A stretch of 24,000 nt of DNA from Aeromonas veronii bv. veronii (GTDB taxonomy: Bacteria > Pseudomonadota > Gammaproteobacteria > Enterobacterales > Aeromonadaceae), in the NCBI RefSeq assembly GCF_000820225.1, contig NZ_CDDK01000025.1, forward strand, positions 153,041-177,040, in the 5' to 3' direction. The stretch's first letter is position 1; each line of letters starts with the position of its first letter. Of this stretch, positions 5,609-24,000 are shown one piece after another. The notes beneath the pieces are model-generated. The model was given only the letters and a program-made list of their open reading frames with translations. It made no database searches and was not told the DNA's origin. Made by a program: the position numbers and the translations under genes.

Positions 5609-6496
5609 TCAACCCATCAAGGCAGGCAGTGAGACCAGCCCCAATCCCGCTGCACGCAAACGGCTGGCCAGCTGTTCCAGCTCGGTTTGGCTAGCCTCTG
5701 GCCATTGCATCGCCTCCCCCCGCACCCCGTGGTGGCGAAAGCCGTTGAGGCGAATGGGCACAGGCCCAAGCTGCTGCAAGAAGGCGGCAAGATCCGCGTC
5801 CAGCTCACCATTCGCATCCAGAAAATCGCTCTTGCCCGGCACATGGAGCAGCCGCAACTCGGCCAGCTTGCCGTGGCGTGCCAGCAGTTGCAGCGATCCC
5901 AGCACCCGCTCGCGACCATAGCCGGTCAGAGTGTGATGCACCGAGTCACGCCACCCCTTGAGGTCGATCATGGCGCCGTCGAGCACCGGCAGCAGCCGCT
6001 GCCAGCCGGTTTCGGCCAGCGAACCGTTGCTGTCGAGCAGGCAAGTGAGATGGGTCAGATCCGGCGCGGCCTTGATGGCGGTAAACAGAGCCGCCACGAA
6101 AGGAAGCCGGGTGGTCGCCTCACCGCCGGAGACGGTAATTCCGCTCAGCAATGGACCATAGCGGCGCAGCAGGGCCAGCACATCGTCCACCGTCATGGTG
6201 GCAGTCTTGGGGTTGGCACTGCGCGGGCAGACATCCAGACAAGCGTCGCAGTCGGTGCAGAGCGCCGTCTGCCATTGTACCTTGCCTTCGCTCAAGGTGA
6301 GGGCGCCGCTCGGGCAGACCGCAAGGCAGTCACCGCAATCGTCGCACAGCCCTATGGTGTGCGGGTTGTGGCAGCCGGGGCAGCGAAAGTTGCAACCCTG
6401 CAGAAACAGCACCAGCCGGTTGCCCGGCCCGTCGACACAGGAGAACGGCAGCACCCTGCTTACCAGGGCGCTGCGTGTTGGCAAAACATCAGCCAT
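5609..6496 (-). CDS. yjjW: Glycyl-radical-enzyme activating radical-SAM protein (YjjW type) with two extra ferredoxin-like clusters
   Basis: The 295-aa product has FSCVDGPGNRLVLFLQGCNFRCPGCHNP (CX3CX2C radical-SAM motif preceded by the activase VDGPG motif). It also has CDDCGDCLAVCP and CTDCDACLDVCP (two CxxCxxCxxxCP motifs) and the SAM-binding-like motif ITVSGGE. It starts 11 nt after the yjjI stop. Confidence 0.8.
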   Translation of the reverse strand: MADVLPTRSALVSRVLPFSCVDGPGNRLVLFLQGCNFRCPGCHNPHTIGLCDDCGDCLAVCPSGALTLSEGKVQWQTALCTDCDACLDVCPRSANPKTATMTVDDVLALLRRYGPLLSGITVSGGEATTRLPFVAALFTAIKAAPDLTHLTCLLDSNGSLAETGWQRLLPVLDGAMIDLKGWRDSVHHTLTGYGRERVLGSLQLLARHGKLAELRLLHVPGKSDFLDANGELDADLAAFLQQLGPVPIRLNGFRHHGVRGEAMQWPEASQTELEQLASRLRAAGLGLVSLPALMG

Positions 6497-6506
6497 CGGT
6501 GCGAAC

Positions 6507-8033
6507 TCAATACTCGCCGATGGTCGATTCGTGGGCGACCACTCGCGGAGCTCGCTGACGAATGGCGGTCACTTCACTCGCCTCCGCACCGAGACAGGTG
6601 GTCTGCAACCGCGAGCCTTCTTCTGCAAAGCGGGCCACGTCGCTCTTGCGGATCATGTAGCCGGTCACCCGCACCAGATCGCTGTCGGCCACGTTGGCGG
6701 TGAACTCGCGCATACCGATGGCGAGCGCCCCTTTGCAGAGCTGCAGCAGTGCCTGCGGGTTCTGACGGATGGTGGGATCCAGCGTCAGGATCTCGCTGAT
6801 CCCCGAATGGTAATAAGTGTGGTGCGGCGCCAGTGCCAGCACATGGCTTGCCGGATCCGGCTCATGCCCGTAGGGGATGCGCACCCCGGGAGTGACCGCT
6901 ACATCGATGCTGAGGCCACCCTGTGAGTGCAGCAGCGCGCGACCACCCCAAGCATGGGTTTGCGGCGTCGCAGTGACATATTCCGAGAGCTGGGCCGAGA
7001 TGCGATAGCCAAGCTGGTTCGCCTCCTCGCCATGGCCGTAGCGATCCGGCAGATTCTCTTTATCCATCAGGATATTGACCGCTTCCGCCATGCCGTAGAT
7101 GCCGAACATGGGGACAAAGCGATCCTCATCCAGCAGCCCCTCTTTCACCAGGAAGCTGTCGAAGAAACCGGACTCATCGTGAAGGAAGGCGGCCCGCGCG
7201 TCGATCAGCTGAGAGGCCAAGCGGCAGTAATGGGGCAGCAGGCAACCGAGGAAATCATCGATCCCCTGACACTGCTCGGCGACCCGCTTGAGGGAGATGC
7301 GCACCAGGGTATTGGCGCCACCCGCCTGCGGCAGGGCGTTGTAGCAGCTGACGATACCAAAACCACGAGCGTCGAAGGTATCGCGGTGGATCGGGTAGTT
7401 GGCGATGTGCGGCTTGCTGCACTCGGCGATGTTCTTCACCGCCTGCAGCAGCAGATCGTCCGGGGTCTGCTCCGGATCGTGGAAGAAGGTGAGGTTCGGC
7501 GCCACCTGCTTGAGCTCGTTGTCGATACGCAGGATCAGGCGGCAGATGCGGTTGTCATCCGGCCCGATGTTGACGTGCATGAAGGCGTCCGGCAGCACCC
7601 TGTCCAGATAGACCCAGAACCCCTTCAGCTTGTGATAGAGGGTCTCGTCATCCAGTTCGCCGACGAAGGGCAGCAGCAGGTGGTCGAGCCGCCCCAGCCA
7701 GACCGGCATGCCGGTAACGGAGGGGACATGGTGATAGAGGATGCGCAGGGCGTTGAGCGCCTCGTCGAAATCCTGCGGCGCCGCCAGCTCAAGCCAGGCA
7801 GAGCCCTGAGTCAGAAATTTTTCATAGTCCGGCAGCACATAACGCGGCTTGTAGGGGGCGTGCCCTTCGAACATGTCGCAGATAAATCCCTGCTCCATCG
7901 CCTCGGCGACTGCGGCAGGCAGGTCGGGGTAGGGCAACGCATTCTCGGCGGCCAGCGCCAGCGCGTGGCTCTTCTGGGCAGCGGAGAGATGGGGATCGCG
8001 CACGATACGCTGACAGGTTTCGATCAAAGACAT
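6507..8033 (-). CDS. yjjI: Short atypical glycyl-radical enzyme of unknown function (YjjI / DUF3029 type)
   Basis: I chose the ATG at 8033 (gaaggagtgtcccATG), giving 508 aa; the track start at 8132 has no SD. A glycyl-radical fingerprint, DLVRVTGYMIR (RVxGY), lies about 60 aa from the C-terminus. The size and the pairing with a YjjW-type activase match E. coli yjjI-yjjW. Confidence 0.8.
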   Translation of the reverse strand: MSLIETCQRIVRDPHLSAAQKSHALALAAENALPYPDLPAAVAEAMEQGFICDMFEGHAPYKPRYVLPDYEKFLTQGSAWLELAAPQDFDEALNALRILYHHVPSVTGMPVWLGRLDHLLLPFVGELDDETLYHKLKGFWVYLDRVLPDAFMHVNIGPDDNRICRLILRIDNELKQVAPNLTFFHDPEQTPDDLLLQAVKNIAECSKPHIANYPIHRDTFDARGFGIVSCYNALPQAGGANTLVRISLKRVAEQCQGIDDFLGCLLPHYCRLASQLIDARAAFLHDESGFFDSFLVKEGLLDEDRFVPMFGIYGMAEAVNILMDKENLPDRYGHGEEANQLGYRISAQLSEYVTATPQTHAWGGRALLHSQGGLSIDVAVTPGVRIPYGHEPDPASHVLALAPHHTYYHSGISEILTLDPTIRQNPQALLQLCKGALAIGMREFTANVADSDLVRVTGYMIRKSDVARFAEEGSRLQTTCLGAEASEVTAIRQRAPRVVAHESTIGEY

Positions 8034-8155
8034 GGGACACTCCTTCACGGACAGAGCCCATATCCTTACCATTTGCAGGCTTTTTTTGAAGTGACATTCA
8101 TGACATGACGGATGTCGAATAATGACATCCATTACACAAGATCACGGCTCACGCT

Positions 8156-10079: not shown

Positions 10080-13000
10080 ATGCGCTCTTCGTGCCGCCTC
10101 GCCACCCTGCTGTTCTCGCCACTCCTGCTCTGGCTGCCCGCCAGTGTCGCCGCCGATGCACTCTGGCTGCACGAGCCCGCCCTCTCCCCCGATGGCAAGC
10201 AGCTTGCCTTCACCTGGCAGGGGCGCATTTTTGTCGCCAGTGCCGAGGGTGGCCCCGCTACGGCGCTCACCGGCAGCGACTACCTGAGCCAGCGGCCGAT
10301 CTGGTCGCCGGATGGCAAACGGCTCGCCTTTGCCGCCAATCTCTACGGCAACGAGGATGTGTTCGTGGTACCCGCCAGCGGCGGCGAGATGGTGCGCCTC
10401 ACTCGCGATTCGCGCACCGATCTGCCGCAAGCCTTCAGCGCCGATGGCAAACGGCTGTTGCTGAGCAGCCAGCGCCTGGGGGCGCCCGATGCCGACCATT
10501 TTGTCGCGGAAGGCTACCAATGGGGCGAGCTCTACTGGACCCCGATCACCGGCGGCACCTTGCAGGCCGATCTGCCGCTGCCTGCGACTCTCGCCCGTCC
10601 CCACGGGGAGCGGCTCGTCTACCAGATGCCCGCGGCGGATCAACCCTTTCGCAAGCATCAGCACTCGTTTGCGGTGCCCCGCCTCTGGCTGTTTGATGGC
10701 AAGCAGCACAAGCAGCTGACCGAAGATCGGGTGGCGGCCACCGATCCGGTCTGGAGCGACAAGGGAGATGCTCTCTTTTACCTGAGCGAGCGCAGCGGTG
10801 ATTTCAACGTCTGGCGCCGGGATCTCGCCAGCGGCAAGGAGCAACAGCTGACCCACTATCAGGGCCATCCGGTGCGGGGGCTCAGCGCCTCTCGCAATGG
10901 CGATCTGGTCTGGTCATGGCTGGGGGAACTCTATCGCCTCGATGCCGATAGCAGCGAGCCACGCAAGCTGACCCTCACCCCGCAAGTGGCCAGCGCGCCG
11001 GATGAGGCGAGCGAGGCCCTGACCCTGGCAGACGAAGCGCTGGTCAGCGAAGAGGCGGATGAGCTGATCCTGGTGAGCGAGGGCAACCTGTTTGCCGTTG
11101 ACCCCGAGCGGGATCGGGTGCGCCAGCTGACCCGCGATCCGAGCGAGCAGTCCAGCCCCCTCTTCGCCGAGCAGGGCCGCGCCCTCATCTATCTGTCGGA
11201 GCAGCAGGGGCACGCCGCCCTCTATCGCCTGCGCAAGGGGGATCCGGATCTGCTGTTCAGCGATCCTGGCACTCTGACCGAGAGTCTGCTGCTGGCGATT
11301 CCCGACAAGGGGATCAGCCGTCCGGTGCTATCCCCCGACGGCAAACAGCTCGCCTTCGTGGTCGATGGTCAGGCCATTCATCTGCTCGATCTGGCGAGCA
11401 ACAAGCAGCGGGAGCTGGTCCCTGCCAGCCTCAACCCCTCGCGCCACGAGGTGCATCTCGCCTTTGCCCCAGACTCCCGCCATCTGGCGCTCACCTTCCG
11501 CCCCGATGCGGCAGAGCAGGAGATCGCGGTGATCGACACGGCCAACCCCAAGGCCAAACCGGTCAATGTCAGCCTCAACGGCTATCAGGATGGACAACCG
11601 GGCTGGAGTCAGGATGGCGCCATCCTCTACTGGCAATCGACCCGGTTTGGCGCACTGGGGCCCGATGGCGAGCCCCTCGTCACCAACCTGCTCGGCATTT
11701 ACAGCAGCCGCGCCGCCAGAGCCGATGCGATTGCCGAGCTGGAGCCGCCGAAAGGGGGATACGGTTTTGAGAGCGATCGTCTCAACCATAGAGAAGCACT
11801 GCTGCTGCAACCCACCGGCACCATGCTCGCCAGCCGCATCATCGGCGACCAGCTGATCTATCTGGTGGAGGAGATGGGGGTCAACAGCGAGAGCGAGATC
11901 AAGGGCTACAGCCAGGATCTGCGCAAAGGCAAAACCAGCGAACTGTTTGGCGAGCAGCCCGGCCCAGCGCTGGCAAGCCTCAACCAGCAGGGCACCCTGG
12001 CTACCCTGGTGCGGGATGGGGAGATCACCCGGATCCACCTCGACTCCGGCGAGGCCACCAGCGCCCCCTTCGCCTTGCAGCCCACCAGCCGCTGGCAGGC
12101 ACGCATGACCGCCGCCTTCGATCAGATCGCCCGGCTCACCCGGGACGAGTTCTATCTGGACGATATGAACGGGGTGAACTGGGATAGCTATGTCGCCGCT
12201 TACCGCCGCCTGCTGCCGGGCATCGGCAACCCGCGGGACTTTGGCAACCTGCTGGCGGAGCTGGCTGGCGAGCTCAATGTCTCCCACACCTGGGGCAGCG
12301 GCCCCGCCCCCTTCCCGCGCATGGCGGACGAGACCGCCAGCCTTGGCGGCTACTGGCAGGATGGCGAGCAAGGGGTGATGCTCACCGCCCTGCTCTCTGG
12401 CGGCCCGCTGGATCAGGAGAGCGATATCGCCCCGGGCGCCCGCCTGCTCGCCATCAACGGCGTCCCGATTGCCAATCTGGCCGAGCTGGATCAAGCCCTT
12501 AACCATCAGGCCGGTGCCCGGCTCGCCCTCATCTTCCAGCAGGAGGGCAACAAGCAAACTGACGAGGTGGTGCTCACCGCCATCGACAAACAGCAGGAGT
12601 ACCAGCTGCAACAGGATCGCTGGATTGAGAAACGGCGGGAGCTGGTGGCCAGCCTGAGCGGAGGACGGGTCGGCTACGTCTATCTGCCGGCAATGAATAG
12701 CGAGGTCTACGATGCGGTGGTGGCGGATGCCCTCGGCAGACAGCGCAATCGCGATGCGCTGATCGTCGATGTCCGCTTCAACAGCGGCGGCTATCTCGCC
12801 AATACCCTGGTAGAGTTTCTGACCGGCAGCGGCAGCACCAAGGGGATGGCCAGCAGCTGGCCCCGTCAGGGCAAGGGGGAAACCGATGCCGCCACTCGCC
12901 AGTGGACCAAGCCCTCGGTGGTGCTGGTCAACGCTGGCAGCTACTCGGAAGGCTCCGCCTTCCCCGAGTACTACCGCACCCTCAAGGTCGGCCCCATCGT

Positions 13001-13247
13001 CGGCGATCCGGTGCCCGGCACCGGCACCATGGTCTACAGCCACGACTCCCGGCTAATCCCGGGACTCTCCTACGGCATTCCGACCCTGGGGCTGCGCAAA
13101 CCGGACGGTACCTTCTACGAAAATCAGGAACTGACCCCGGATCTGCAGGTGCCCCTCACCCCCGCCGACATGGTGGCCGGGCGCGACCCGCAACTGGAGG
13201 CGGCAGTACAAGCCGCCCTCAAGCAGTTGCCAGCCAACGCCAAATAA
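10080..13247 (+). CDS. Secreted tricorn-like protease: TolB/PD40-type beta-propeller repeats + PDZ + S41 (tail-specific) peptidase domain
   Basis: The product is 1055 aa with signal peptide MRSSCRLATLLFSPLLLWLPASVAADA. PD40-like repeats recur (LSPDGKQLAF, WSPDGKRLAF, FSADGKRLLL, LSPDGKQLAF, FAPDSRHLAL). A PDZ-like segment reads GARLLAINGVPIANLAELDQAL. The S41 core contains GYVYLPAMN...LIVDVRFNSGGY...VVLVNAGSYSEGSAF. Confidence 0.8.
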   Translation: MRSSCRLATLLFSPLLLWLPASVAADALWLHEPALSPDGKQLAFTWQGRIFVASAEGGPATALTGSDYLSQRPIWSPDGKRLAFAANLYGNEDVFVVPASGGEMVRLTRDSRTDLPQAFSADGKRLLLSSQRLGAPDADHFVAEGYQWGELYWTPITGGTLQADLPLPATLARPHGERLVYQMPAADQPFRKHQHSFAVPRLWLFDGKQHKQLTEDRVAATDPVWSDKGDALFYLSERSGDFNVWRRDLASGKEQQLTHYQGHPVRGLSASRNGDLVWSWLGELYRLDADSSEPRKLTLTPQVASAPDEASEALTLADEALVSEEADELILVSEGNLFAVDPERDRVRQLTRDPSEQSSPLFAEQGRALIYLSEQQGHAALYRLRKGDPDLLFSDPGTLTESLLLAIPDKGISRPVLSPDGKQLAFVVDGQAIHLLDLASNKQRELVPASLNPSRHEVHLAFAPDSRHLALTFRPDAAEQEIAVIDTANPKAKPVNVSLNGYQDGQPGWSQDGAILYWQSTRFGALGPDGEPLVTNLLGIYSSRAARADAIAELEPPKGGYGFESDRLNHREALLLQPTGTMLASRIIGDQLIYLVEEMGVNSESEIKGYSQDLRKGKTSELFGEQPGPALASLNQQGTLATLVRDGEITRIHLDSGEATSAPFALQPTSRWQARMTAAFDQIARLTRDEFYLDDMNGVNWDSYVAAYRRLLPGIGNPRDFGNLLAELAGELNVSHTWGSGPAPFPRMADETASLGGYWQDGEQGVMLTALLSGGPLDQESDIAPGARLLAINGVPIANLAELDQALNHQAGARLALIFQQEGNKQTDEVVLTAIDKQQEYQLQQDRWIEKRRELVASLSGGRVGYVYLPAMNSEVYDAVVADALGRQRNRDALIVDVRFNSGGYLANTLVEFLTGSGSTKGMASSWPRQGKGETDAATRQWTKPSVVLVNAGSYSEGSAFPEYYRTLKVGPIVGDPVPGTGTMVYSHDSRLIPGLSYGIPTLGLRKPDGTFYENQELTPDLQVPLTPADMVAGRDPQLEAAVQAALKQLPANAK

Positions 13248-13262
13248 CGGCGCCCATCGAGC

Positions 13263-14555
13263 TCAACGAAAGCGAAACAGCTCGCGATGCAGATGCCCGT
13301 CCGGCAACAACCGGGTCAGGGCATCTGCCATCCCCTCCGGCCCGCAAAACCACACCTGCTCGGGTGCATCCTGCGCAATGCGGGCAAGCTCCAGTCGCCC
13401 GGCCGCCTTGTCCAGATGCAGCTGATAGCGCACGCCGGTGCGATGACAGAGCTCGACCAACCGCTGGTGGTAGACAGCCCCCGCCAGATCCGGCGCACAC
13501 TGGATCAGGGTGATCCCCTCGCCCCGCTCCCCACGGGCTGCCAGCCCCTCCAGCCAGGCGACGAACGGCGTGATACCTATCCCGGCCCCCAGCCAGAGGG
13601 CTCTACCTCCCCCTTGCGGGGCGACAAAGGCGCCATAGGGCCCGGTCACCACCACCCCATCCCCGACGCGCGCCTCTGCCACCAGCTGACGGGTATGATC
13701 CCCGAGCGCCCGCACCGCGATCACCAGCTGGCGCCGATCCGCTGACACCCGCACCAGGGTAAAGGGATGCGGCCCCTCCTTGGCATCAAATTCGAAGAAG
13801 GCAAACTGACCCGGGCGGTAATGGGCGAGCGACCGCTCCAGCTGCATGGTCAGCTCGCAGGTCTGATCCGCCAGCGCCCGCACCGCAATGACACGGCCCG
13901 GATGGCGATCCCGCGCTCCCACTTGTCCCAACAGGGAGTAGAGGGCCCCGATAGCGCCGATCCCGCCGATCAACCAGATCGATACCCCAACCGGCGTCAT
14001 GGCTCCCACCTGAGGCAACAAGCAGAGCCCGTGCCCCCACCCCACCAGATAGATGAGCGGCGCCAGCCGGTGGATCAGCCGAAAGCGACCATAACTCACC
14101 AGCGCCAGCAAGCTCACCACCACCAGCGCGATCAGCAGATAGAAACTCCACTCACCCAGGGTATTGCCAAGGGCATGGAGCGAGATGCCATTACCTGCGC
14201 CAGCCCCAGCACCGCTGGCCCCACGCCGCGCGGGACGACTCAGTAAACCTGCCGAGACCGCCCACTTGGGCGCCTCCACCAGCAGCCAGTGGGCGGTCAG
14301 CGCCAATGCACCGCCGATGGCCGTTTGGCGGTGCCATCGCAACATCCGGTCCAGACCGCCACACCACACCTCCAGCTGCGGCAGGCGCAATGCCAGCAAC
14401 AACGAAATCGCCATATAGGCCATCCCCAGCAGACCCGTCAGCAGCAACATCTCATGGCGCCAGGGCCACACCCCGTTGGCATCCCCCGCATAACCCAGCC
14501 ACCAGACTCCGACCGCCAGCAGCGGCAACAGCCACCACATCCATTTGTTCGTCAT
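13263..14555 (-). CDS. Bacterial NOX/FRE-type flavocytochrome: ferric-reductase transmembrane domain fused to an FNR-like FAD/NAD(P)H dehydrogenase domain
   Basis: I chose the ATG at 14555 (ccagggagcatgttATG), giving 430 aa. There are two His pairs, WH-x13-HW and IH-x12-HG, with the same spacing as the bis-heme ligands of eukaryotic NOX2. Other motifs are the FAD motif GPHPFTL, the NAD(P)H motif LGAGIGITPF and the C-terminal WFCGPEGM. Confidence 0.8.
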   Translation of the reverse strand: MTNKWMWWLLPLLAVGVWWLGYAGDANGVWPWRHEMLLLTGLLGMAYMAISLLLALRLPQLEVWCGGLDRMLRWHRQTAIGGALALTAHWLLVEAPKWAVSAGLLSRPARRGASGAGAGAGNGISLHALGNTLGEWSFYLLIALVVVSLLALVSYGRFRLIHRLAPLIYLVGWGHGLCLLPQVGAMTPVGVSIWLIGGIGAIGALYSLLGQVGARDRHPGRVIAVRALADQTCELTMQLERSLAHYRPGQFAFFEFDAKEGPHPFTLVRVSADRRQLVIAVRALGDHTRQLVAEARVGDGVVVTGPYGAFVAPQGGGRALWLGAGIGITPFVAWLEGLAARGERGEGITLIQCAPDLAGAVYHQRLVELCHRTGVRYQLHLDKAAGRLELARIAQDAPEQVWFCGPEGMADALTRLLPDGHLHRELFRFR

Positions 14556-14675
14556 AACATGCTCCCTGGTTCCATCGCGGCAGGGCCTCATCTCCCTGCT
14601 CATGGCGCCATTGCACACCCGTCCGGTCACAAGACTTTGCCAGAGGGGGAAGCTTGTGTGGCAATGTGTGACAAA

Positions 14676-14706
14676 CGGAAACAAAAGAGGGGCCGACTGG
14701 CCCCTC
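14676..14706 (-). terminator. Strong intrinsic terminator on the minus strand with no obvious gene to terminate (upstream of the NOX-like gene)
   Basis: The minus strand reads GAGGGGCC-agtc-GGCCCCTC followed by TTTTGTTTCCGTTTG. It lies about 120 nt upstream of the NOX-like start codon and about 445 nt downstream of the operon's own terminator. Confidence 0.65.
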
Positions 14707-14863
14707 GTGATCACCCTTGTTGGCTCGCCCCTCTTCACAGGAGATGGCGCACAATCCACCTCCGCTGTGATTGACGACCTGCCAGAAAAAGGAATCAAAT
14801 GGGGACGTTACATATCTGCGGCGGAAAACCTGCTGCCCACTCTTCTGCACAAGGAGTCCCCCC

Positions 14864-15097
14864 TTGCTTTCATCCACTGAACAACGCGTCTGCCCGAGTT
14901 GTCAGCGCGAGACCAACCATGTCGTGGTGCTGGTCGACAAATCCTTTGGCCAGCAGCTGACACCGGAGCAAAAGCGCAAAGCGTTTATCAAGGACTTCAT
15001 TACCGGCTGGGCCGCCGGCCCCTTTCTGGCAAACATGGATCGCTTTGAACGCCACACCATCTGTGAAAATTGCGGAAATAAAGTTATTGATGAATGA
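14864..15097 (+). CDS. Possible small zinc-ribbon protein (77 aa, TTG start)
   Basis: The start context is aaggagtccccccTTG. The product is LLSSTEQRVCPSCQRETNHVVVLV...RHTICENCGNKVIDE, with CxxC motifs at both ends. Third-position GC is enriched through the middle of the frame. I recognise no family. The longer track ORF from 14771 lacks an SD. Confidence 0.45.
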   Translation: MLSSTEQRVCPSCQRETNHVVVLVDKSFGQQLTPEQKRKAFIKDFITGWAAGPFLANMDRFERHTICENCGNKVIDE

Positions 15098-15150: not shown

Positions 15151-15190
15151 AAATCCAAAAGAAGGCGTTGCGATTCAGGATCACAACGCC
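15151..15190 (-). terminator. Rho-independent terminator of the three-gene synthase operon
   Basis: The minus strand reads GGCGTTGtGATcctgaATCgCAACGCC followed by TTCTTTTGGATTT, 8 nt after the adaptor gene stop at 15198. Confidence 0.65.
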
Positions 15191-15197
15191 ATAGACA

Positions 15198-16247
15198 TCA
15201 ATCAAACAACACGGTCACCGGCAACCCTTCCACTTGCAGGTTCGGGGGTAATTTTTCATCCAGCGAGAGTGCGACCTTGAGGGTTGCTTTCTCCCCTTCA
15301 AACGGTGCTGCAAGCTGGGCTGGCAGCTTGTCTGCAAGCTCCACAGGTCTGGCAACCCTAGCCGCCAAACGCTCACCACTGGGCAACTTGACGATAGCCT
15401 TATGACCCGGCTTCATCGAGGAGAGGTATTTTGGCAATACGTAGGCAATGACCAACGGGTCTTCCCGCTTAGCGATCAACGCGAGGGGGGCCCCCGAGAA
15501 GACCCAGTCCCCCTCCTGCACCAGCACATCTGAGACCTTGCCGGTAGCTGGGGAAAGGGGTTGCTGCTGCCTAGTGATAGCTTGCATCTCGGTTAGCTCC
15601 TGCACCAACTGGTGGCGCGCACTGGCCAGTGGCCCTGTCAGCTGATCTTCTTTGATCTGCAACTCTTGCTGCATTTTTTCAGATCTTGCCTTCTGCAAAT
15701 CGATACGAGACTGGGTCCAGCTCAGCAAGGCACTGGCATACTCGGCGCTGGAAACCAGTTTCTCCTTCCTATACCCCGCGTACTCCTGATAGATCCCCTC
15801 CTGCTCATTAGCCCCCCGCTCTGCGATACGAATCTGCTCATCCAGGTTACTCAATATCGCCTGTTCGGCAGCGCTCTTGTCCAGCTCGATCGCTTTTAGA
15901 CGTGCTTTACGCCCCTCTATATTGGCCCGTAGCGTCGGCGACTCGAATCGCATCAGGGCATCCCCTTGCGAGACGGCTTGACCGGGAGACATATAAATGT
16001 TGCGAATGAAGCCATCTCCATTGGCCACCACAAGTTGAGGTTCCGTCGTGATGATGGCAGGCGCCTGGGTCAGCCACCACTCTCGTCCCAGATACCAGAG
16101 CAGTATGATGACGGGGCTGAATGCCAACAGCAGGATCAGATACCAGCGGGCCCGAAATGCGATGCGCTTGGCGGGGGCATAGAGCACCCGAATCCCTTGA
16201 TCAGAGGTAGCGTCCTGTTTCTTGGGGGGATTAAATGTGACTTTCAT
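15198..16247 (-). CDS. HlyD-family periplasmic adaptor / membrane fusion protein (MxdC/BgsB-like)
   Basis: The ATG at 16247 overlaps the GT2 stop (TGATG, 1-nt overlap), giving 349 aa. There is an N-terminal TM anchor (WYLILLLAFSPVIILLWYL) and a lipoyl-like hairpin (GFIRNIYMSPGQAVSQGDALMRFESP). A long coiled coil follows (EGRKARLKAIELDKSAAEQ...LQKARSEKMQQELQIKEDQL), then a second half-barrel (GKVSDVLVQEGDWVFSGAPLALI). Confidence 0.85.
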   Translation of the reverse strand: MKVTFNPPKKQDATSDQGIRVLYAPAKRIAFRARWYLILLLAFSPVIILLWYLGREWWLTQAPAIITTEPQLVVANGDGFIRNIYMSPGQAVSQGDALMRFESPTLRANIEGRKARLKAIELDKSAAEQAILSNLDEQIRIAERGANEQEGIYQEYAGYRKEKLVSSAEYASALLSWTQSRIDLQKARSEKMQQELQIKEDQLTGPLASARHQLVQELTEMQAITRQQQPLSPATGKVSDVLVQEGDWVFSGAPLALIAKREDPLVIAYVLPKYLSSMKPGHKAIVKLPSGERLAARVARPVELADKLPAQLAAPFEGEKATLKVALSLDEKLPPNLQVEGLPVTVLFD

Positions 16248-17587
16248 CAGAATTTGTTTCCTCGTTTTAATACCCACCAGGGAGCCATACTGCTCTCCTC
16301 ATGACCGCGACGGAAAATTTCGTTGAGCAGTGCCACGGCACACCATAGACGCATCAGCAGGGTATAGAGCGGATACAGCAACAACCATGGCAACATACGC
16401 ATATCCGCTTTAGGCCGCTCGGAAATGGCAAGCAAAAACACCATAAAATTGACCAGAGTAAGAAGCAGATAGACCTGGTAGAGGCACAGCATCAAGGCCG
16501 TAACGAACGGACCAGGATAACTTAACACCAGCCACCAGCTGTACCCCATGACCAACAGCGGCAACACCACGTTTTGTGCCACCCCGTAGATCAGAGTGAA
16601 CAAAAAGGTCTTCCATCCCAAGATGCGCGGAGTCAGCGATAGCTTGTGTTTGCGCAGGTAGAGAAACAGCAAATCCCCATCCCAGCGCAGACGCTGGTTT
16701 GCCAGGGTCACCAAATCTGCAGGGGCGTCCGTGTGACCAATGGCTCTGGGGGCAAAGCCGATCTTCAGATTGGGATGGCGTTTGAGGTAGTGCTTGATCC
16801 GCACCGTTAAATCCAGATCTTCTGCTGTGTGGGTATCCCACCCTCCAATCTGGCGCAGGAAATCGAGGCGAAAAGCCCCGAATGCCCCCGAAATATTGTT
16901 GATCAGGTTCCATTCGCTCAGACCCGTTTTGCCCCCCTGCATGGAGATCATGTACTCGATCCCCTGCATACGGGTCAGCAAACCATCGCGCAGGTTGCGC
17001 ACCCGCAACGCCCCACCAACGGCGGGCACGTTCGGGTCATCGAAGCAGGCGACAATCTCATCGATCATGTTGTTGTCGAAGGAAGTGTCCCCGTCTGCAT
17101 TCATGACTATCTCGCCTGTTGCCGCCGACAAGCCAGCATTGAGGGTCGATACCCGCCCGCCACGCTGCCACTTGGGCAGTAGCACTAGGGTACGTCTCTC
17201 ACATCCCTCAAACTCGGCGATACAGTTTAAGGCCGCCTGATAGGTATGGGCATTGGCCTTGGCACCATCGATCACCGCAATGATCTCCAGATGGCCGCGA
17301 TAGAGCTGTTCCTTGAGGGTCAGAATGGTCGAGCGGATCGCCTCCCCCTCGCCGTAACAGGTGATGATGCAGGAGACCTTGGGACAACGATGTGACAGGG
17401 GTAAATCAGACTTTTTGGGCAACTGACGGGCAAACCACTTGAGGATCCCGGTCAGGGTCAGCGCCATCAGGGGCACCTCCATCAGCAGCAACATGGGAAG
17501 CAGCAGCAGGATCATCCTGGGCGAAAACTGCAGACTGCCCAGGATCTCGGTCAGGATGTACCGAACCGTACTCATCCACTCAGGCAT
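16247..17587 (-). CDS. Integral-membrane processive family-2 glycosyltransferase (PgaC/IcaA/NodC/BcsA-class synthase; MxdB-like)
   Basis: The product is about 446 aa. Two N-terminal TM segments precede a GT-A core with VSCIITCYGE, AVIDG, NADGDT (DxD), HTAEDLDLT (TED) and NQRLRWDGD (QxxRW). The C-terminus carries 3-4 TM segments. The start is either the ATG at 17587, overlapping the upstream stop (ATGCCTGA), or the ATG at 17575. Confidence 0.9.
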   Translation of the reverse strand: MPEWMSTVRYILTEILGSLQFSPRMILLLLPMLLLMEVPLMALTLTGILKWFARQLPKKSDLPLSHRCPKVSCIITCYGEGEAIRSTILTLKEQLYRGHLEIIAVIDGAKANAHTYQAALNCIAEFEGCERRTLVLLPKWQRGGRVSTLNAGLSAATGEIVMNADGDTSFDNNMIDEIVACFDDPNVPAVGGALRVRNLRDGLLTRMQGIEYMISMQGGKTGLSEWNLINNISGAFGAFRLDFLRQIGGWDTHTAEDLDLTVRIKHYLKRHPNLKIGFAPRAIGHTDAPADLVTLANQRLRWDGDLLFLYLRKHKLSLTPRILGWKTFLFTLIYGVAQNVVLPLLVMGYSWWLVLSYPGPFVTALMLCLYQVYLLLTLVNFMVFLLAISERPKADMRMLPWLLLYPLYTLLMRLWCAVALLNEIFRRGHEESSMAPWWVLKRGNKF

Positions 17588-18923
17588 CCTGAAGGCTCCC
17601 ATCCAGCCAGCGGCTCAACCAGAGGGCAGTATCTTCACCCAGCGTGGTAGGGAGCGGCTCTACCTGCACATTCAGCGTCAAGGCATCCAGCCCCTCGACA
17701 TTGTTGAGCGCCAGGATCCGCCCCTGCAAGATCTGCCAATCCTCCACACTGGTGTGCGGCAGCAACAACAGCAGTCGATCATCGGCATACTGGCAAACCA
17801 CATCGGTATCCCGAAACAATGCCTGCAGACGAGCCAGCAAGGCCCCCAATCTCTGCTGAGTCTTCAACAGGCCCAATTCGGCGCGCAGCTCGGCGAGCTG
17901 CTCGATCTGGATAGCCAAAAGGGTATGGTTGCCGCCGTGGCGCTGCAGCAGCCGGTTGCTCCATTGCAGCAGCCAAGGGAAGTGATCCATCGCCATCGGA
18001 GCCCCCCAAGTCAGGGGCAGATGCAACTGCTGAGTACCCTCGCGAGCAATATGGCGAGCCAGTTTGCCGATGCGGTACTCATAGATGGGAGACACCAACA
18101 GATCATCGGGTTTGTGAGCCCGCCCACACTCATGACATCGCGCCTGTACTGCCGCCTCCATGAAACGGGCATGGCAAGAGAGACAGCGGTACTTTTCCAG
18201 TGGTCTGTCGTAGTCGACCCCTATATGACGCAGGGTTGTCACACACTTGGGACAACGCAGCAAACCCTGTTGCATGAAGACATCCTGATCGTCCACATGA
18301 CCGCAGGTGAAACAGTGCACCGCAGGCTTGGCCTGGATGGCGATATGGGAACATTCTGGACATACGTCGACAAAATTAAGATGAGCAGAGCTGCAACTGC
18401 TGCACAGGCGTACTCGATCGACCAGTTGTTCAATCTGCAATAGCCGCTCGGAGACCAGTTGCGGCAAGGATGCAGTTGCATCGGCCCCCAGCAAACAATC
18501 CAGCAGCGGGTAGCTGTAGCCCTGGCGACAACCTGCCTGCCAGCGAGGTAACAAACGGAAATGAGCCCTCGGCCAGCTGTACCAGGCCAGCTTCTCCATT
18601 TCGTCGGGGTGTTCACGCGGCGTCAGCAATGACAGTCGCTCCAGCATGTCTGGTGCTCTCTCATCCAACTGTGACAGAAGGCCATCAGACAGAATCGGAG
18701 ATAGCGGGCTTTGCGTCACGCAAAATACGGGATACAGAAAGCGAGAAGAATCGCGACGGATCGCCAGCAAGATTCGATCCTGCTCTTCACTGGGTAAGTT
18801 AAGCAGCAATACCGGCAGTTCGGCTGGCCGCCACTGGGACAAGTCACTGAGAGACCGGGTGTTTCGCTCTACCGGTGTCCCCAGCAAGGAGACTAGGCTG
18901 AGCGGTTCACTTGTACTCGTCAT
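17580..18923 (-). CDS. Multi-domain regulator: N-terminal domain of unknown fold + three tandem zinc ribbons + degenerate GGDEF domain retaining the RxxD I-site (putative c-di-GMP receptor; MxdA-like, TackOD1-like middle region)
   Basis: The product is 447 aa with SD gaggtgatttttccATG. Six CxxC motifs lie at residues 174, 188, 204, 224, 247 and 263 (CSSC, CPEC, CFTC, CPKC, CLSC, CHEC). The C-terminal segment LLAIQIEQLAELRAELG...LARLQALFRDTDVVCQYADDRLLLLLPHTS aligns to the GGDEF-domain consensus. ADDRL replaces GGDEF and IQIEQ replaces the metal-binding DxDxF, while RDTD sits exactly 5 residues before the degenerate motif, as the RxxD I-site does in PleD. Confidence 0.8.
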   Translation of the reverse strand: MTSTSEPLSLVSLLGTPVERNTRSLSDLSQWRPAELPVLLLNLPSEEQDRILLAIRRDSSRFLYPVFCVTQSPLSPILSDGLLSQLDERAPDMLERLSLLTPREHPDEMEKLAWYSWPRAHFRLLPRWQAGCRQGYSYPLLDCLLGADATASLPQLVSERLLQIEQLVDRVRLCSSCSSAHLNFVDVCPECSHIAIQAKPAVHCFTCGHVDDQDVFMQQGLLRCPKCVTTLRHIGVDYDRPLEKYRCLSCHARFMEAAVQARCHECGRAHKPDDLLVSPIYEYRIGKLARHIAREGTQQLHLPLTWGAPMAMDHFPWLLQWSNRLLQRHGGNHTLLAIQIEQLAELRAELGLLKTQQRLGALLARLQALFRDTDVVCQYADDRLLLLLPHTSVEDWQILQGRILALNNVEGLDALTLNVQVEPLPTTLGEDTALWLSRWLDGSLQDA

Positions 18924-19337
18924 GGAAAAATCACCTCATTCAGCAGGCAAAAATAGGGGATGGCCCGATGGGGCTTTTACCTCAGTATCAACCTAGATAG
19001 AAAAAGTGGAGAACAGACTCACCATCCAGGCCGGTGCAAGTGTCACAGCCGACACAAATGACCGATGTTTGGAACATTAGAGGAACCAGAAGAGAGCCAA
19101 CGATAACCAAGGCCATATTCCTATATGCCACCCAGCCATCTCCGGGCGGAGCCCTGAGGCTTTCTGAAGCGGGTTAACACCTGGGGAGGCAAGAGCGCCA
19201 GCGCTGTCCAAAGAATAATAATCAGCAAACGCTATAGTGTAATTACTTATTACTTCATCCATTGAACTCTACGCAACATCAAAATACTGAAATATTGGGG
19301 TTACACGGATTTTTCTGCAGAATTATTGCGCTGATAT

Positions 19338-19370
19338 GATATAGCCCTGCACGGGTTGCAGGACTATATC
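19338..19370 (-). terminator. Long hairpin downstream of the M3 peptidase gene (terminator-like, poor U tract)
   Basis: GATATAGCCCTGCA-cgggt-TGCAGGACTATATC forms a 14-bp stem with one C/T mismatch (a G-U pair on one strand). It lies 38 nt after the stop at 19408. Confidence 0.4.
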
Positions 19371-19407
19371 CACATAAATGGCTCAACCTTAGGAGCCGCA
19401 TCCCGCG

Positions 19408-21516: not shown

Positions 21517-23199
21517 ATGTTCAAGCTCGGTGATATTACCGTGAGCCGCAAATTGATTTTGCTGCTCGCACTGGCGTTTGTCGGTTTTGTCTCGCTGCTG
21601 CTTATCTCGGCCAACGCGCTCCAACGCAATCTGATGAGCGAGCGAGAGGCGCGGCTCAATGCGGTACTGGAGCAGGCCATGAGCCAGATCCAGTTTCTGG
21701 CCAGCACCCTGCCAGCAGAGCAGGCTCAGCAGGAGGCACGCAAGCTGCTGACCAACACCCGCTTTGATGGCAACAACTATTTATTCGTCATCGACGAGAA
21801 CCGCACCATGGTGGTTCACCCCATCCGTCCCGAACTGGTCGGCCAGAAGATGGGTGAAGGGGGCGCCGCCACCGCCGGGCAGTTCTGGTATCAGATGGTG
21901 GATATCGCCAAAGGGGGCAAACAAGGCACTCTGCAATATGTGTGGGTCGGCCCGTCGGGTGAGACCGCCGACAAGCTATCCATGGTCTCCGGCTATCAGC
22001 CCTGGGGCTGGATCCTCGGTTCCGGCATGCTGCTGCAAGATATTCAGCAGACCATCTGGGCCCAGTACATGAAGATGGGGACCGCCACCGCCATCGTGAT
22101 CCTGCTGATGGGGCTGCTGGGCTGGCGTATTACCCATTCCATCGTCTCCCCCCTCAGCCAGATCAACCACGCCATGCAGCGGGTCGCCAAGGGGGATCTG
22201 GTGGTAAGCATCCCGGTACAGGGCAAGGATGAGCTGGGAGTGGTCGCCCGCTGCACCAACCAGAGTCTCGATGCCATCCGTCACGCCCTGCTGGAAGCCA
22301 GCCAGGGGGCTCGCAACGTGGCGGATGCCGCCCTGCGCATCGCCGCCTCTGCCGAGCAGACCAATCAGGCGGTCACCAGCCAGCGGGATCAGCTGGCCCA
22401 GCTCGCTACCGCCATGAACGAGATGAGCGCCACCATCTCCGATGTGGCCGGACACGCCGAAAATACCGCGCGGGATACCCAGGAAGCGACCGGTGAAGCG
22501 GGCCTCGGCAACCGTGATGTTCATGCCAGCGTGCACGGCATCAAGGCGCTGGCCACCGAGGTGGAGCAGGCCACCCAGCAGGTCAACCAGCTCAAAGAGG
22601 GAGTGATGCAGATCAGCGAAGTGACCGCCGTCATCAGCGCCATTTCGGAGCAGACCAACCTGCTGGCCCTCAACGCCGCCATCGAAGCAGCACGGGCTGG
22701 CGAGCAGGGCCGCGGTTTTGCCGTGGTGGCCGACGAGGTGCGCCAGCTGGCCAGCCGCACTCGCCAATCCACCGAAGAGATCCAGAGTACCATTGCCCAA
22801 CTGCAGCAACGGGCCGTCACCGCCGCCAACGCCATGGATACCAGCCGCAAACTGGCAGAGAGCAGCGTCAACCAGTCCCAGCAGGCGGGGCAGGATCTCA
22901 CCCTGATCGTCAACCACATCCAGCATGTAAGCGACATGGCAACCCAGATCGCGACCGCCGCCGAGCAGCAGAGCATGGTGGCCGAGGATATGAACCGCAA
23001 CGTCAGCGGCATCAACGACTCGGCGCTGGAGATGTCCCAGTCCGCCTCGCAACTGGCGCAGGAGAGCGAGCTGCTGGCCGGTCTCTCCCGCAGTCTGGAT
23101 GAGCGACTTGCGGTGTTCAAACTGGGTAAGGAGTCCGCCGCGGCGCCGATGATGGCGCCCCAATCTCCCCCCTCCGGCGAGCAGCACGCCCGCCATTGA
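21517..23199 (+). CDS. Methyl-accepting chemotaxis protein with a periplasmic single-Cache-type sensor, HAMP and MCP signalling domain
   Basis: The product is 560 aa. It has an N-terminal TM and a sensor region with [25 protein letters not shown] and [12 protein letters not shown] (sCache_2-like). A second TM is followed by HAMP ([17 protein letters not shown]). The conserved hairpin region is [35 protein letters not shown]. Confidence 0.9.
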
Positions 23200-23258: not shown

Positions 23259-23469
23259 ACGCCGCAAAACACGCAGCAAGCATGCATCTTATTGGCATAT
23301 TCAACGGTATTCGACGCCATTCACAAACAAGAGAACAATTTAAAAACAGCCAGTTAGAATGATTTACGCGCCATTGGATGATGCATTTAAACATTCAACT
23401 TCAAATAGCGAATCAATGCAGTGCACAATGCTGATGGCCGAACATTTGGCCCATCACTAATCATCTAGT

Positions 23470-23552
23470 CATTTGGCAAACTGACCGAAAGGTCGGGACG
23501 CAAAGCCTCCGGTCTACAGACGTTTTGTCCAGGATAGCGGGGTTGCCACACG
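23470..23552 (+). promoter_or_regulatory. c-di-GMP-I (GEMM-I) riboswitch aptamer in the gbpA leader
   Basis: The sequence is GGCAAACugaccGAAAggucGGGACGCAAAGCCUCCGGucuacagacguuuugucCAGGAUAGCGGGGUUGCC. The strings GGCAAAC, GGGACGCAAAGCCUCCGG and AGCGGGGUU.CC, and the GAAA tetraloop-capped P2 hairpin, match the V. cholerae Vc2 aptamer sequence I remember almost base for base. GGCAA and UUGCC close P1. In V. cholerae the Vc1 member of this class lies upstream of gbpA. Confidence 0.85.
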
Positions 23553-23615: not shown

Positions 23616-24000
23616 ATGGCAGCAAAAATCCAACTCAATCACATCGCAGCGGTGCTGGCTCTGCTGGCCAGCGGCAGCGCCCTGGCTCATGGCTACATCA
23701 GCCAGCCAGAGAGTCGCAACTATCTGTGCAAAACCGGCGGCAACAGCCAGTGTGGCGGCGTGCAGTGGGAACCCCAGAGCGTGGAGGGCCCTTCCGGCTT
23801 CCCGCAGAGTGGCCCGCAGGATGGTCAAATCGCCTCGGCGGGCAGCCCGCGCTGGAGCGAGCTGAACATCCAGACCAGCGACCGCTGGACCAAGCGTGAA
23901 GTACAGCCCGGCCCCTTCGCCATCAGCTGGACCTTCACCGCCAACCACGTCACCCGTAACTGGCGCTACTACCTCACCAAGCAGGACTGGAACCCCAACC
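23616..24000 (+). CDS. gbpA: N-acetylglucosamine-binding protein A / AA10 lytic polysaccharide monooxygenase, N-terminal 128 aa (continues beyond the right window edge)
   Basis: This ORF is missing from the track because it runs off the window. My translation from the ATG at 23616 (cagaggaatgtATG) gives MAAKIQLNHIAAVLALLASGSALA/HGYISQPESRNYLCK...CGGVQWEPQSVEGPSGFPQSGPQDGQIASAG...TSDRWTKREVQPGPFAISWTFTANHVTRNWRYYLTKQDWNPN. After signal cleavage the mature N-terminus is His1, as in LPMOs. The sequence is collinear with V. cholerae GbpA (IQYEPQSVEGPDGFP...WTFTANHVTKDWKYYITK). Confidence 0.85.
   Translation, partial: MAAKIQLNHIAAVLALLASGSALAHGYISQPESRNYLCKTGGNSQCGGVQWEPQSVEGPSGFPQSGPQDGQIASAGSPRWSELNIQTSDRWTKREVQPGPFAISWTFTANHVTRNWRYYLTKQDWNPN

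Follow-up and report, generated by a model that had tools for sequence, protein, structure and literature searches.

A TackOD1 protein with a degenerate GGDEF domain as the MxdA orthologue of Aeromonas veronii and probable c-di-GMP receptor of a Mxd-type exopolysaccharide operon

A stretch of 24,000 nucleotides (nt) from Aeromonas veronii bv. veronii (positions 153,041 to 177,040 of the forward strand of contig NZ_CDDK01000025.1, assembly GCF_000820225.1; hereafter the window, within which all positions are counted from the first letter) was analysed around a gene of its minus strand. Matches rounding to 100% identity (P0001-P0003, P0005), of which the named ones come from A. veronii strains, agree with its being A. 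veronii chromosome. The product of this gene combines an N-terminal alpha/beta domain, a cysteine-rich TackOD1 domain and a degenerate GGDEF domain (Table 1). The gene is the orthologue of mxdA from Shewanella oneidensis, an assignment that is secure at the level of sequence. The gene probably heads an mxdABC operon for the synthesis and export of a biofilm exopolysaccharide, and its product is probably a cytoplasmic receptor of cyclic diguanylate (c-di-GMP) and not a cyclase.

The MxdA sequence was reached by searches from a Psychromonas family member and then from a member of the Shewanella clade, followed by a cluster look-up that led to AAN57153.1; the family representative P0403 was identified from its source names as MxdA of S. 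oneidensis MR-1 (SO_4180, AAN57153.1). BLASTP aligned the A. veronii protein with it over 414 collinear residues (36% identity, E=2e-84), with the same order of N-terminal domain, TackOD1 with six CxxC motifs and dead GGDEF domain with an RxxD motif. In MR-1 MxdA the TackOD1 profile matched with E=4.7e-71, and the Pfam GGDEF profile scored 22.5 bits, just under its cutoff. The next two genes of the A. veronii operon agree with this assignment. The putative processive family 2 glycosyltransferase (GT2) is 61% identical to MR-1 MxdB over its full length, and the HlyD-type membrane-fusion protein is 35% identical to MxdC over 350 amino acids (aa), also at full length (E=8e-69). In MR-1 the genes mxdA, mxdB, mxdC and mxdD follow one another in the same order and with the same overlaps, including the single nucleotide shared by mxdB and mxdC. 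Moreover, a TackOD1 protein, a GT2 and a membrane-fusion protein were adjacent in all six loci examined, namely the window, Vibrio cholerae, Pseudomonas sp., S. oneidensis, a metagenome-assembled genome (MAG) of Cellvibrionaceae and a distant member with 27% identity to a Shewanella homologue. The collinear homology with MxdA, the matches to MxdB and MxdC and this recurrent trio make the orthology secure, the missing mxdD apart. The gene overlaps and the constant trio also bear out the coupling of this protein to a synthase that had been proposed in a preliminary description of the window made from the sequence alone.

Other candidates were discarded during the search for characterised relatives. 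V. cholerae CdgG, with its SGDEF motif, is not the same protein, and the primer-derived N-termini of the "degenerate" Vibrio fischeri proteins VF_0355 and VF_A0216 do not match the family members of Aliivibrio fischeri. A search of the genome contigs with the published mxd promoter primer (PMC3691769) matched only an unrelated contig of a Saprospiraceae MAG.

In Shewanella, the mxd genes are needed for three-dimensional biofilm formation and aggregation, MxdB being described as a membrane GT2, MxdC as an efflux-pump-like protein and MxdD as a hypothetical protein (PMC3691769). According to two other papers, MxdA, which "proved to be a c-di-GMP-binding protein", has CheY3 and the cyclase PdgA as interaction partners and "probably activates the Mxd machinery" (PMC7666153, PMC11395469); the first of them has MxdA binding CheY3 and the CheY proteins of Escherichia coli and V. 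cholerae, but not that of Pseudomonas aeruginosa (PMC7666153). The binding of c-di-GMP, the interaction with CheY3 and PdgA and the biofilm role come only from this Shewanella literature and may hold for A. veronii by analogy. The combination of domains had been thought to lack a characterised precedent, which does not stand given the orthology with MxdA and given that the fusion of TackOD1 with GGDEF was noted by Galperin et al. 2018 (PMC5847659).

The protein was modelled with AlphaFold 2 (AF2) using 96 homologues as input (mean predicted local distance difference test, pLDDT, 90.2; predicted TM-score, pTM, 0.79). No transmembrane or hydrophobic segment was detected in its sequence, so it should be soluble. 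The C-terminal third of the model, compared with the PDB by Foldseek, retrieved GGDEF domains only, among them SiaD, WspR, the Thermotoga maritima diguanylate cyclase, PleD and DosC, with E~1e-7 and TM-scores normalised to the target of 0.56-0.70. The Pfam GGDEF profile matched residues 324-405 with 33.5 bits (gathering cutoff 23.8), and the family profile matched the c-di-GMP-bound GGDEF structure of Marinobacter, 3IGN, with E=2e-10. The initial proposal that the last ~150 residues adopt a GGDEF fold is therefore backed both by structure comparison and by profile searches.

The profile alignment to 3IGN placed RDTD on the RQSD inhibitory site (I-site), ADDRL on the GGEEF signature and QIEQL on the metal-binding DIDHF, with the canonical spacing of 5 residues between RxxD and the signature position. 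On re-reading the open reading frame (ORF), the residue positions first given for RDTD (371-374, nt 17802-17813), ADDRL (380-384) and IQIEQ (338-342) were exact. The replacement of DxDxF, with Gln instead of the metal-binding Asp, was rightly recognised, but its placement at 338-342 was off by one, the aligned segment being QIEQL at 339-343. PleD, WspR and the Marinobacter protein are active cyclases that share with the A. veronii protein the GGDEF fold and an RxxD motif 5 residues before the signature, whereas the latter has lost the active-site signature and the metal and GTP ligands, so that the I-site is its only recognisable nucleotide site.

Conservation was examined in 114 full-length homologues (31-100% identity) and in 131 of the best representatives of clusters at 50% identity, and Pfam scans were run on 96 family members. 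None of the ~245 sequences in the first two sets carries GG[DE]EF at the signature position, and the loss of catalytic residues first noticed in this one protein therefore extends to the whole family. By contrast with the signature, the I-site is preserved: R371 and D374 occur in every one of the 114 homologues, T373 is conserved in 94%, and RDTD aligns with RVTD of MxdA. Among the cluster representatives, R371 is kept in 108/131 and D374 in 120/131. A family made up of dead GGDEF domains with a preserved I-site bears the signature of receptors, and R371 and D374 are predicted to contact c-di-GMP.

These alignments also bear on how MxdA itself was first understood. Thormann et al. 2006 reportedly took MxdA for a cyclase whose GGDEF motif had the unusual form "NVDEF". 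NVDEF is indeed present in MxdA and its close relatives (within SIQMLNVDEFL, MxdA residues ~358-362). In the alignment, however, it falls not at the signature but ~25 residues ahead of RxxD, in the beta1/alpha1 segment where active cyclases have DxDxFKxxND. The pentapeptide is offset 3 residues downstream of the QIEQL stretch, its Asn falling on Q342 of the A. veronii protein, which has QLAE- there (residues 342-345). The motif is not conserved beyond the S. oneidensis clade, and none of the first 265 sequences searched has NVDEF in place of the GGDEF signature. Its location outside the signature agrees with later work, in which MxdA is no longer regarded as a cyclase.

Regarding the central part of the protein, the Pfam TackOD1 profile (PF18551) matched residues 106-285 with 190.4 bits (E=3.1e-56, cutoff 32), covering model positions 7-188 of 188. 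The resemblance to TackOD1 proposed at first was thus confirmed from end to end. The six CxxC motifs lie exactly where they had been read, at residues 174/177, 188/191, 204/207, 224/227, 247/250 and 263/266 (nt 18126-18404). Their 12 Cys are invariant across the 114 homologues (C266 being Cys in 111/114) and nearly invariant among the 131 cluster representatives; H203, H233, D237, D239, W321 and R328 are further invariant residues. Because the 12 Cys persist in homologues of down to 31% identity, the motif array is far beyond chance.

Galperin et al. 2018 defined TackOD1 as an output domain in response regulators of Thaumarchaeota with the architectures REC-TackOD1 and REC-wHTH-TackOD1, that is, with a receiver (REC) and optionally a winged helix-turn-helix (wHTH) domain (PMC5847659). 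The archaeal domain has 5 CxxC and one HxxC motif and is encoded in type IV pilus loci; according to these authors, its "functions ... remain obscure". Bacterial TackOD1 is "often fused to the GGDEF" according to Table S5 of the same work, and an HHpred comparison linked it to the Zn-bound YfgJ (PMC5847659). In the searchable literature, the word TackOD1 appeared only in that naming paper. The archaeal REC-TackOD1 proteins of Thaumarchaeota and other TACK lineages share with the A. veronii protein the PF18551 domain, the array of Cys knuckles and an alpha/beta domain of ~100-120 aa directly before TackOD1. They end after TackOD1, however, and have a bona fide receiver, whereas the A. veronii protein has an N-terminus that Pfam does not recognise as REC, a sixth CxxC in place of HxxC, and an appended dead GGDEF domain. 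No solved structure homologous to TackOD1 was found by sequence search or by Foldseek. The weak structural neighbours of this part in the model of residues 1-296 were the Zn modules of MCM, PolD and PriA, all of them non-significant (E>0.02).

Weak Pfam matches to DZR and Zn_ribbon_6 in the Cys-rich region, together with the reported link to YfgJ, suggest that the metal of the array is Zn. The knuckles could pair as three consecutive ribbons of 4 Cys, and a nested arrangement is also possible. The array may be simply structural. Alternatively, it could be a sensor, such as a redox switch of Zn-thiolate type or an Fe(Cys)4 centre resembling rubredoxin, that gates the receptor when oxidised or stripped of its metal and integrates the redox or metal status with c-di-GMP, which would be compatible with the c-di-GMP receptor proposed here. 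Twelve invariant Cys with the invariant H203 and H233 are in line with such a sensor, as is a weak NCBIfam match to a rubrerythrin-like domain (E=6e-4, below cutoff). In addition, mxd expression and biofilm formation in Shewanella respond to starvation and to the Arc system, although this regulation is transcriptional (PMC3691769). Nevertheless, CxxC...CxxC knuckles on beta-hairpins are the ordinary pattern of structural zinc ribbons, with which the links to DZR, Zn_ribbon and YfgJ agree. No sequence feature separates a sensing from a structural site, and no conserved redox partner genes lie beside the operon in the loci examined. Sensing of redox state or metal by the array found no support in this analysis and is considered improbable.

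Zinc ribbons often bind DNA or RNA, and the structural neighbours from MCM, PolD and PriA could hint at a module that binds nucleic acid, which would turn the protein into a c-di-GMP-responsive regulator of transcription or RNA instead of a direct activator of the synthase. An indirect effect of MxdA on cellular c-di-GMP, reported earlier (PMC3409153), is possible for a regulator of this kind. However, those structural matches are non-significant, as stated above, and the archaeal REC-wHTH-TackOD1 proteins carry a separate domain for DNA binding (PMC5847659). Moreover, the translational coupling to the GT2 gene and the strict adjacency in 6/6 divergent loci point to a subunit-like role, and a nucleic-acid regulator is thus very unlikely.

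An unorthodox but active diguanylate cyclase, in line with the Pfam GGDEF score above cutoff and with the name "diguanylate cyclase" that NCBI frequently gives to family members, can hardly be credited in view of ADDRL at the signature and Gln at the metal-binding position, the family-wide absence of GG[DE]EF, an NCBIfam GGDEF score of 14 bits that is far below the cutoff of 37.4, the position of NVDEF in MxdA and its absence from the Aeromonas protein, and later papers that call MxdA degenerate, indirect in its effect on c-di-GMP and an effector (PMC7666153, PMC3409153).

At the N-terminus, residues 1-105 fold as a small alpha/beta domain with pLDDT >90 in the AF2 model, and L52, L78, D80 and G81 are nearly invariant. 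An hhalign comparison of the family N-terminus with five REC sequences placed residues 33-98 on CheY 48-128 (P=6e-4, probability 29%). The alignment is in register from beta3 to alpha5, with the LLLNL strand on the strand that bears D57 and N42 at the position of D57 itself. The equivalent of this residue is Asp in only about 1/3 of the family members and Asn42 in the A. veronii protein. A Foldseek search with the model of residues 1-296 gave many REC matches (CheY, PhoB, Rcp1), with E of 0.2-0.8 and TM-scores of only 0.43-0.49. On the other hand, Pfam Response_reg (PF00072) did not match any of the 96 family members at E<=1. The pseudo-receiver suggested at first for this region is hence weakly supported by the hhalign and model comparisons, while the low Foldseek scores, the lack of Pfam matches and the minority of members with Asp at the D57 position count against it.

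With these data, a working model can be proposed for the A. veronii protein as an MxdA-type receptor. c-di-GMP would bind R371 and D374 of the dead GGDEF domain, and the resulting change would be relayed through the N-terminal domain and the tightly packed TackOD1, held together by metal on its 12 invariant Cys. The membrane-embedded processive MxdB-like synthase would then be activated or assembled, and the polymer would cross the periplasm aided by the MxdC-like membrane-fusion protein. If the Shewanella system is a guide, MxdA may also be a docking site for phosphorylated CheY (CheY~P) and for a local cyclase.

In the Pel polysaccharide machine of P. aeruginosa, the c-di-GMP receptor is PelD, a protein with a degenerate GGDEF domain. 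Its dead GGDEF fold senses c-di-GMP through an RxxD I-site and licenses a polysaccharide glycosyltransferase from its own operon, which is the working logic proposed here for the MxdA-like protein. The two proteins differ in their construction. PelD is membrane-anchored and has a GAF domain, whereas the A. veronii protein is soluble, has TackOD1 and the N-terminal alpha/beta domain, and gave no GAF match. The PelD_GGDEF profile produced a faint match in only 4/96 MxdA-family members, and the glycosyltransferase partner of PelD is of a different type from the MxdB-like GT2.

A more specific possibility concerns the role of TackOD1. Since archaeal TackOD1 is fused to a receiver and MxdA binds free CheY, the N-terminal domain and TackOD1 might be a docking module for CheY~P. 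TackOD1 would then be a receiver-coupled switch whose receiver, intact in archaea, would have decayed in the bacterial MxdA family into an N-terminal pseudo-receiver that docks free CheY~P together with TackOD1, and MxdA-type proteins would be AND-gates for CheY~P and for c-di-GMP at RxxD, both being required to switch on a processive polysaccharide synthase. This idea is tentative and, on balance, unlikely.

Several points weigh against the assignment of the locus to a complete Mxd system with a c-di-GMP receptor. The identity to MxdA is only 36%. No co-directional ORF that could be mxdD was found in the window beyond the terminator that follows mxdC, and the directness of this terminator after the mxdC stop indicates a three-gene operon without mxdD, whereas small mxdD-like genes are present in the MR-1 and V. 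cholerae loci. The outer-membrane component is not encoded in the three-gene operon either. Finally, ~18% of the distant representatives do not have the Arg of RxxD, maybe in part through alignment error. Besides the lack of mxdD, the A. veronii system differs from that of S. oneidensis in having QLAE- where MxdA has NVDEF and Asn at the equivalent of the receiver D57.

In two of the loci, Pseudomonas sp. C27 (L003 9813-11867) and the distant member (L005 2964-4850), an extra protein of 630-680 aa with no Pfam match is encoded inside the cluster of TackOD1, GT2 and membrane-fusion protein genes. This protein could serve in export at the outer membrane or in the periplasm, as a component that the three-gene operon of Aeromonas lacks.

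Table 1. Features of the mxd-like operon in the window and of the protein encoded by its first gene
Feature	Position	Strand	Basis or remark
mxdA-like gene (N-terminal domain, TackOD1, degenerate GGDEF)	17580..18923	-	ORF of 447 aa
Shine-Dalgarno sequence GAGGTGA, 7 nt 5' of the mxdA-like ATG	18931..18937	-	read from sequence
N-terminal alpha/beta domain, residues 1-105, possible pseudo-receiver	18609..18923	-	AF2 pLDDT >90
TackOD1 domain, residues 106-285, PF18551	18069..18608	-	Pfam E=3.1e-56
Six CxxC knuckles (12 Cys) with H203 and H233, predicted metal sites	18126..18404	-	conservation
Degenerate GGDEF-fold domain, residues ~296-447	17583..18038	-	Pfam, Foldseek, profile vs 3IGN
RDTD, RxxD I-site (R371, D374), predicted c-di-GMP contact	17802..17813	-	alignments, conservation
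ADDRL (380-384) replacing the GG(D/E)EF signature	17772..17786	-	profile alignment to 3IGN
QIEQL (339-343) replacing metal-binding DxDxF	17895..17909	-	profile alignment to 3IGN
mxdB-like gene, processive GT2	16247..17602	-	starts possible at 17602, 17587 or 17575; overlaps the end of the mxdA-like gene
mxdC-like gene, HlyD-type membrane-fusion protein	15198..16247	-	homology, Pfam; maximal ORF to 16277
Intrinsic terminator, 11-bp stem and T-run, directly after the mxdC stop	15164..15190	-	

The MxdB-like protein matched the Pfam GT2 and Chitin_synth_2 profiles, carries the motifs DGD, TAEDLD and QRLRW, and has ~5 transmembrane segments. It is related to PgaC and NodC, with weak NCBIfam matches to both, to chitin synthase and to hyaluronan synthase structures, and no equivalog cutoff was reached. 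The MxdC-like protein matched Pfam HlyD_D23 and HlyD_3 and has one N-terminal transmembrane segment. Its likely start is the ATG that overlaps the mxdB stop by 1 nt (TGATG), and its alignment with MxdC begins at M11.

Upstream of the mxdA-like gene there is an intergenic leader of 484 nt (18924-19407), partly AT-rich, in which one weak sigma-70-like site alone was noted (19215-19243, minus strand); an Rfam scan of this leader gave zero matches. For comparison, the mxd operon of Shewanella has a long leader and is controlled by ArcA and UvrY. Two genes upstream of the mxdA-like gene, the region 21517-23199 (+) encodes a methyl-accepting chemotaxis protein (MCP; sCache_2-HAMP-MCPsignal), and in Pseudomonas sp. 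C27 the TackOD1 gene likewise has an MCP gene immediately upstream (L003 3338-5260). This proximity could be a coincidence, yet it deserves mention given the interaction between CheY3 and MxdA in Shewanella.

Furthermore, a strong c-di-GMP-I riboswitch (RF01051, 74.7 bits, E=3e-13) was found at 23465-23550 (+). The ORF downstream of it (23616-24000, +), which runs off the end of the window, encodes a signal peptide and a His1 LPMO_10 domain (E=4e-28), and these N-terminal features identify it as a GbpA-like chitin-binding protein. This is the classic Vc1/gbpA arrangement known from V. cholerae, and it places a second output under c-di-GMP control no more than 5 kb from the mxd-like operon.

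On the other side, a small ORF convergent to the operon (14771-15097, +) has a zinc-ribbon-like pair, CPSC...CENC, and no significant Pfam match, and is a candidate gene. The remaining neighbours are unrelated: a ferric-reductase-type transmembrane/FAD/NAD protein (13263-14798, -), a tricorn-like PD40/S41 protease (10080-13247, +) and a YjjI-like glycyl-radical enzyme with its radical-SAM activase (5609-8132, -).

To estimate the extent of the family, 1.84 billion cluster representatives were searched with a profile of residues 1-296, which retrieved 2184 clusters (50% identity) at E<=1e-3, of which 750 at E<=1e-30. The best 150 representatives are nearly all 440-490 aa long and, judging by these lengths, have the same architecture. 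A few family representatives, such as P0158 (971 aa) and P0184 (752 aa), are extended by 300-530 aa at the N-terminus, ahead of the TackOD1 unit; these extensions have no Pfam match and are possibly extra sensor domains. The name "TackOD1 domain-containing metal-binding protein" is already in use in the databases.

The A. veronii protein thus belongs to a known kind, that of MxdA and the Mxd system, and its residual interest lies in the function of TackOD1 and in the possible pseudo-receiver. These results assign the locus to the Mxd class of exopolysaccharide machines under c-di-GMP control, which is relevant to the biofilm of a pathogen of fish and humans, and they make it plain that MxdA, the protein studied by experiment, is itself a TackOD1 protein. 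Since the family is large and its zinc-knuckle domain has neither a solved structure nor a known function, MxdA and its orthologues are the obvious entry point to the role of TackOD1. If MxdA-type proteins were indeed AND-gates for CheY~P and c-di-GMP, this would be the first function for TackOD1, a domain present in more than 2000 sequence clusters, and it would explain the puzzling interaction between CheY3 and MxdA.

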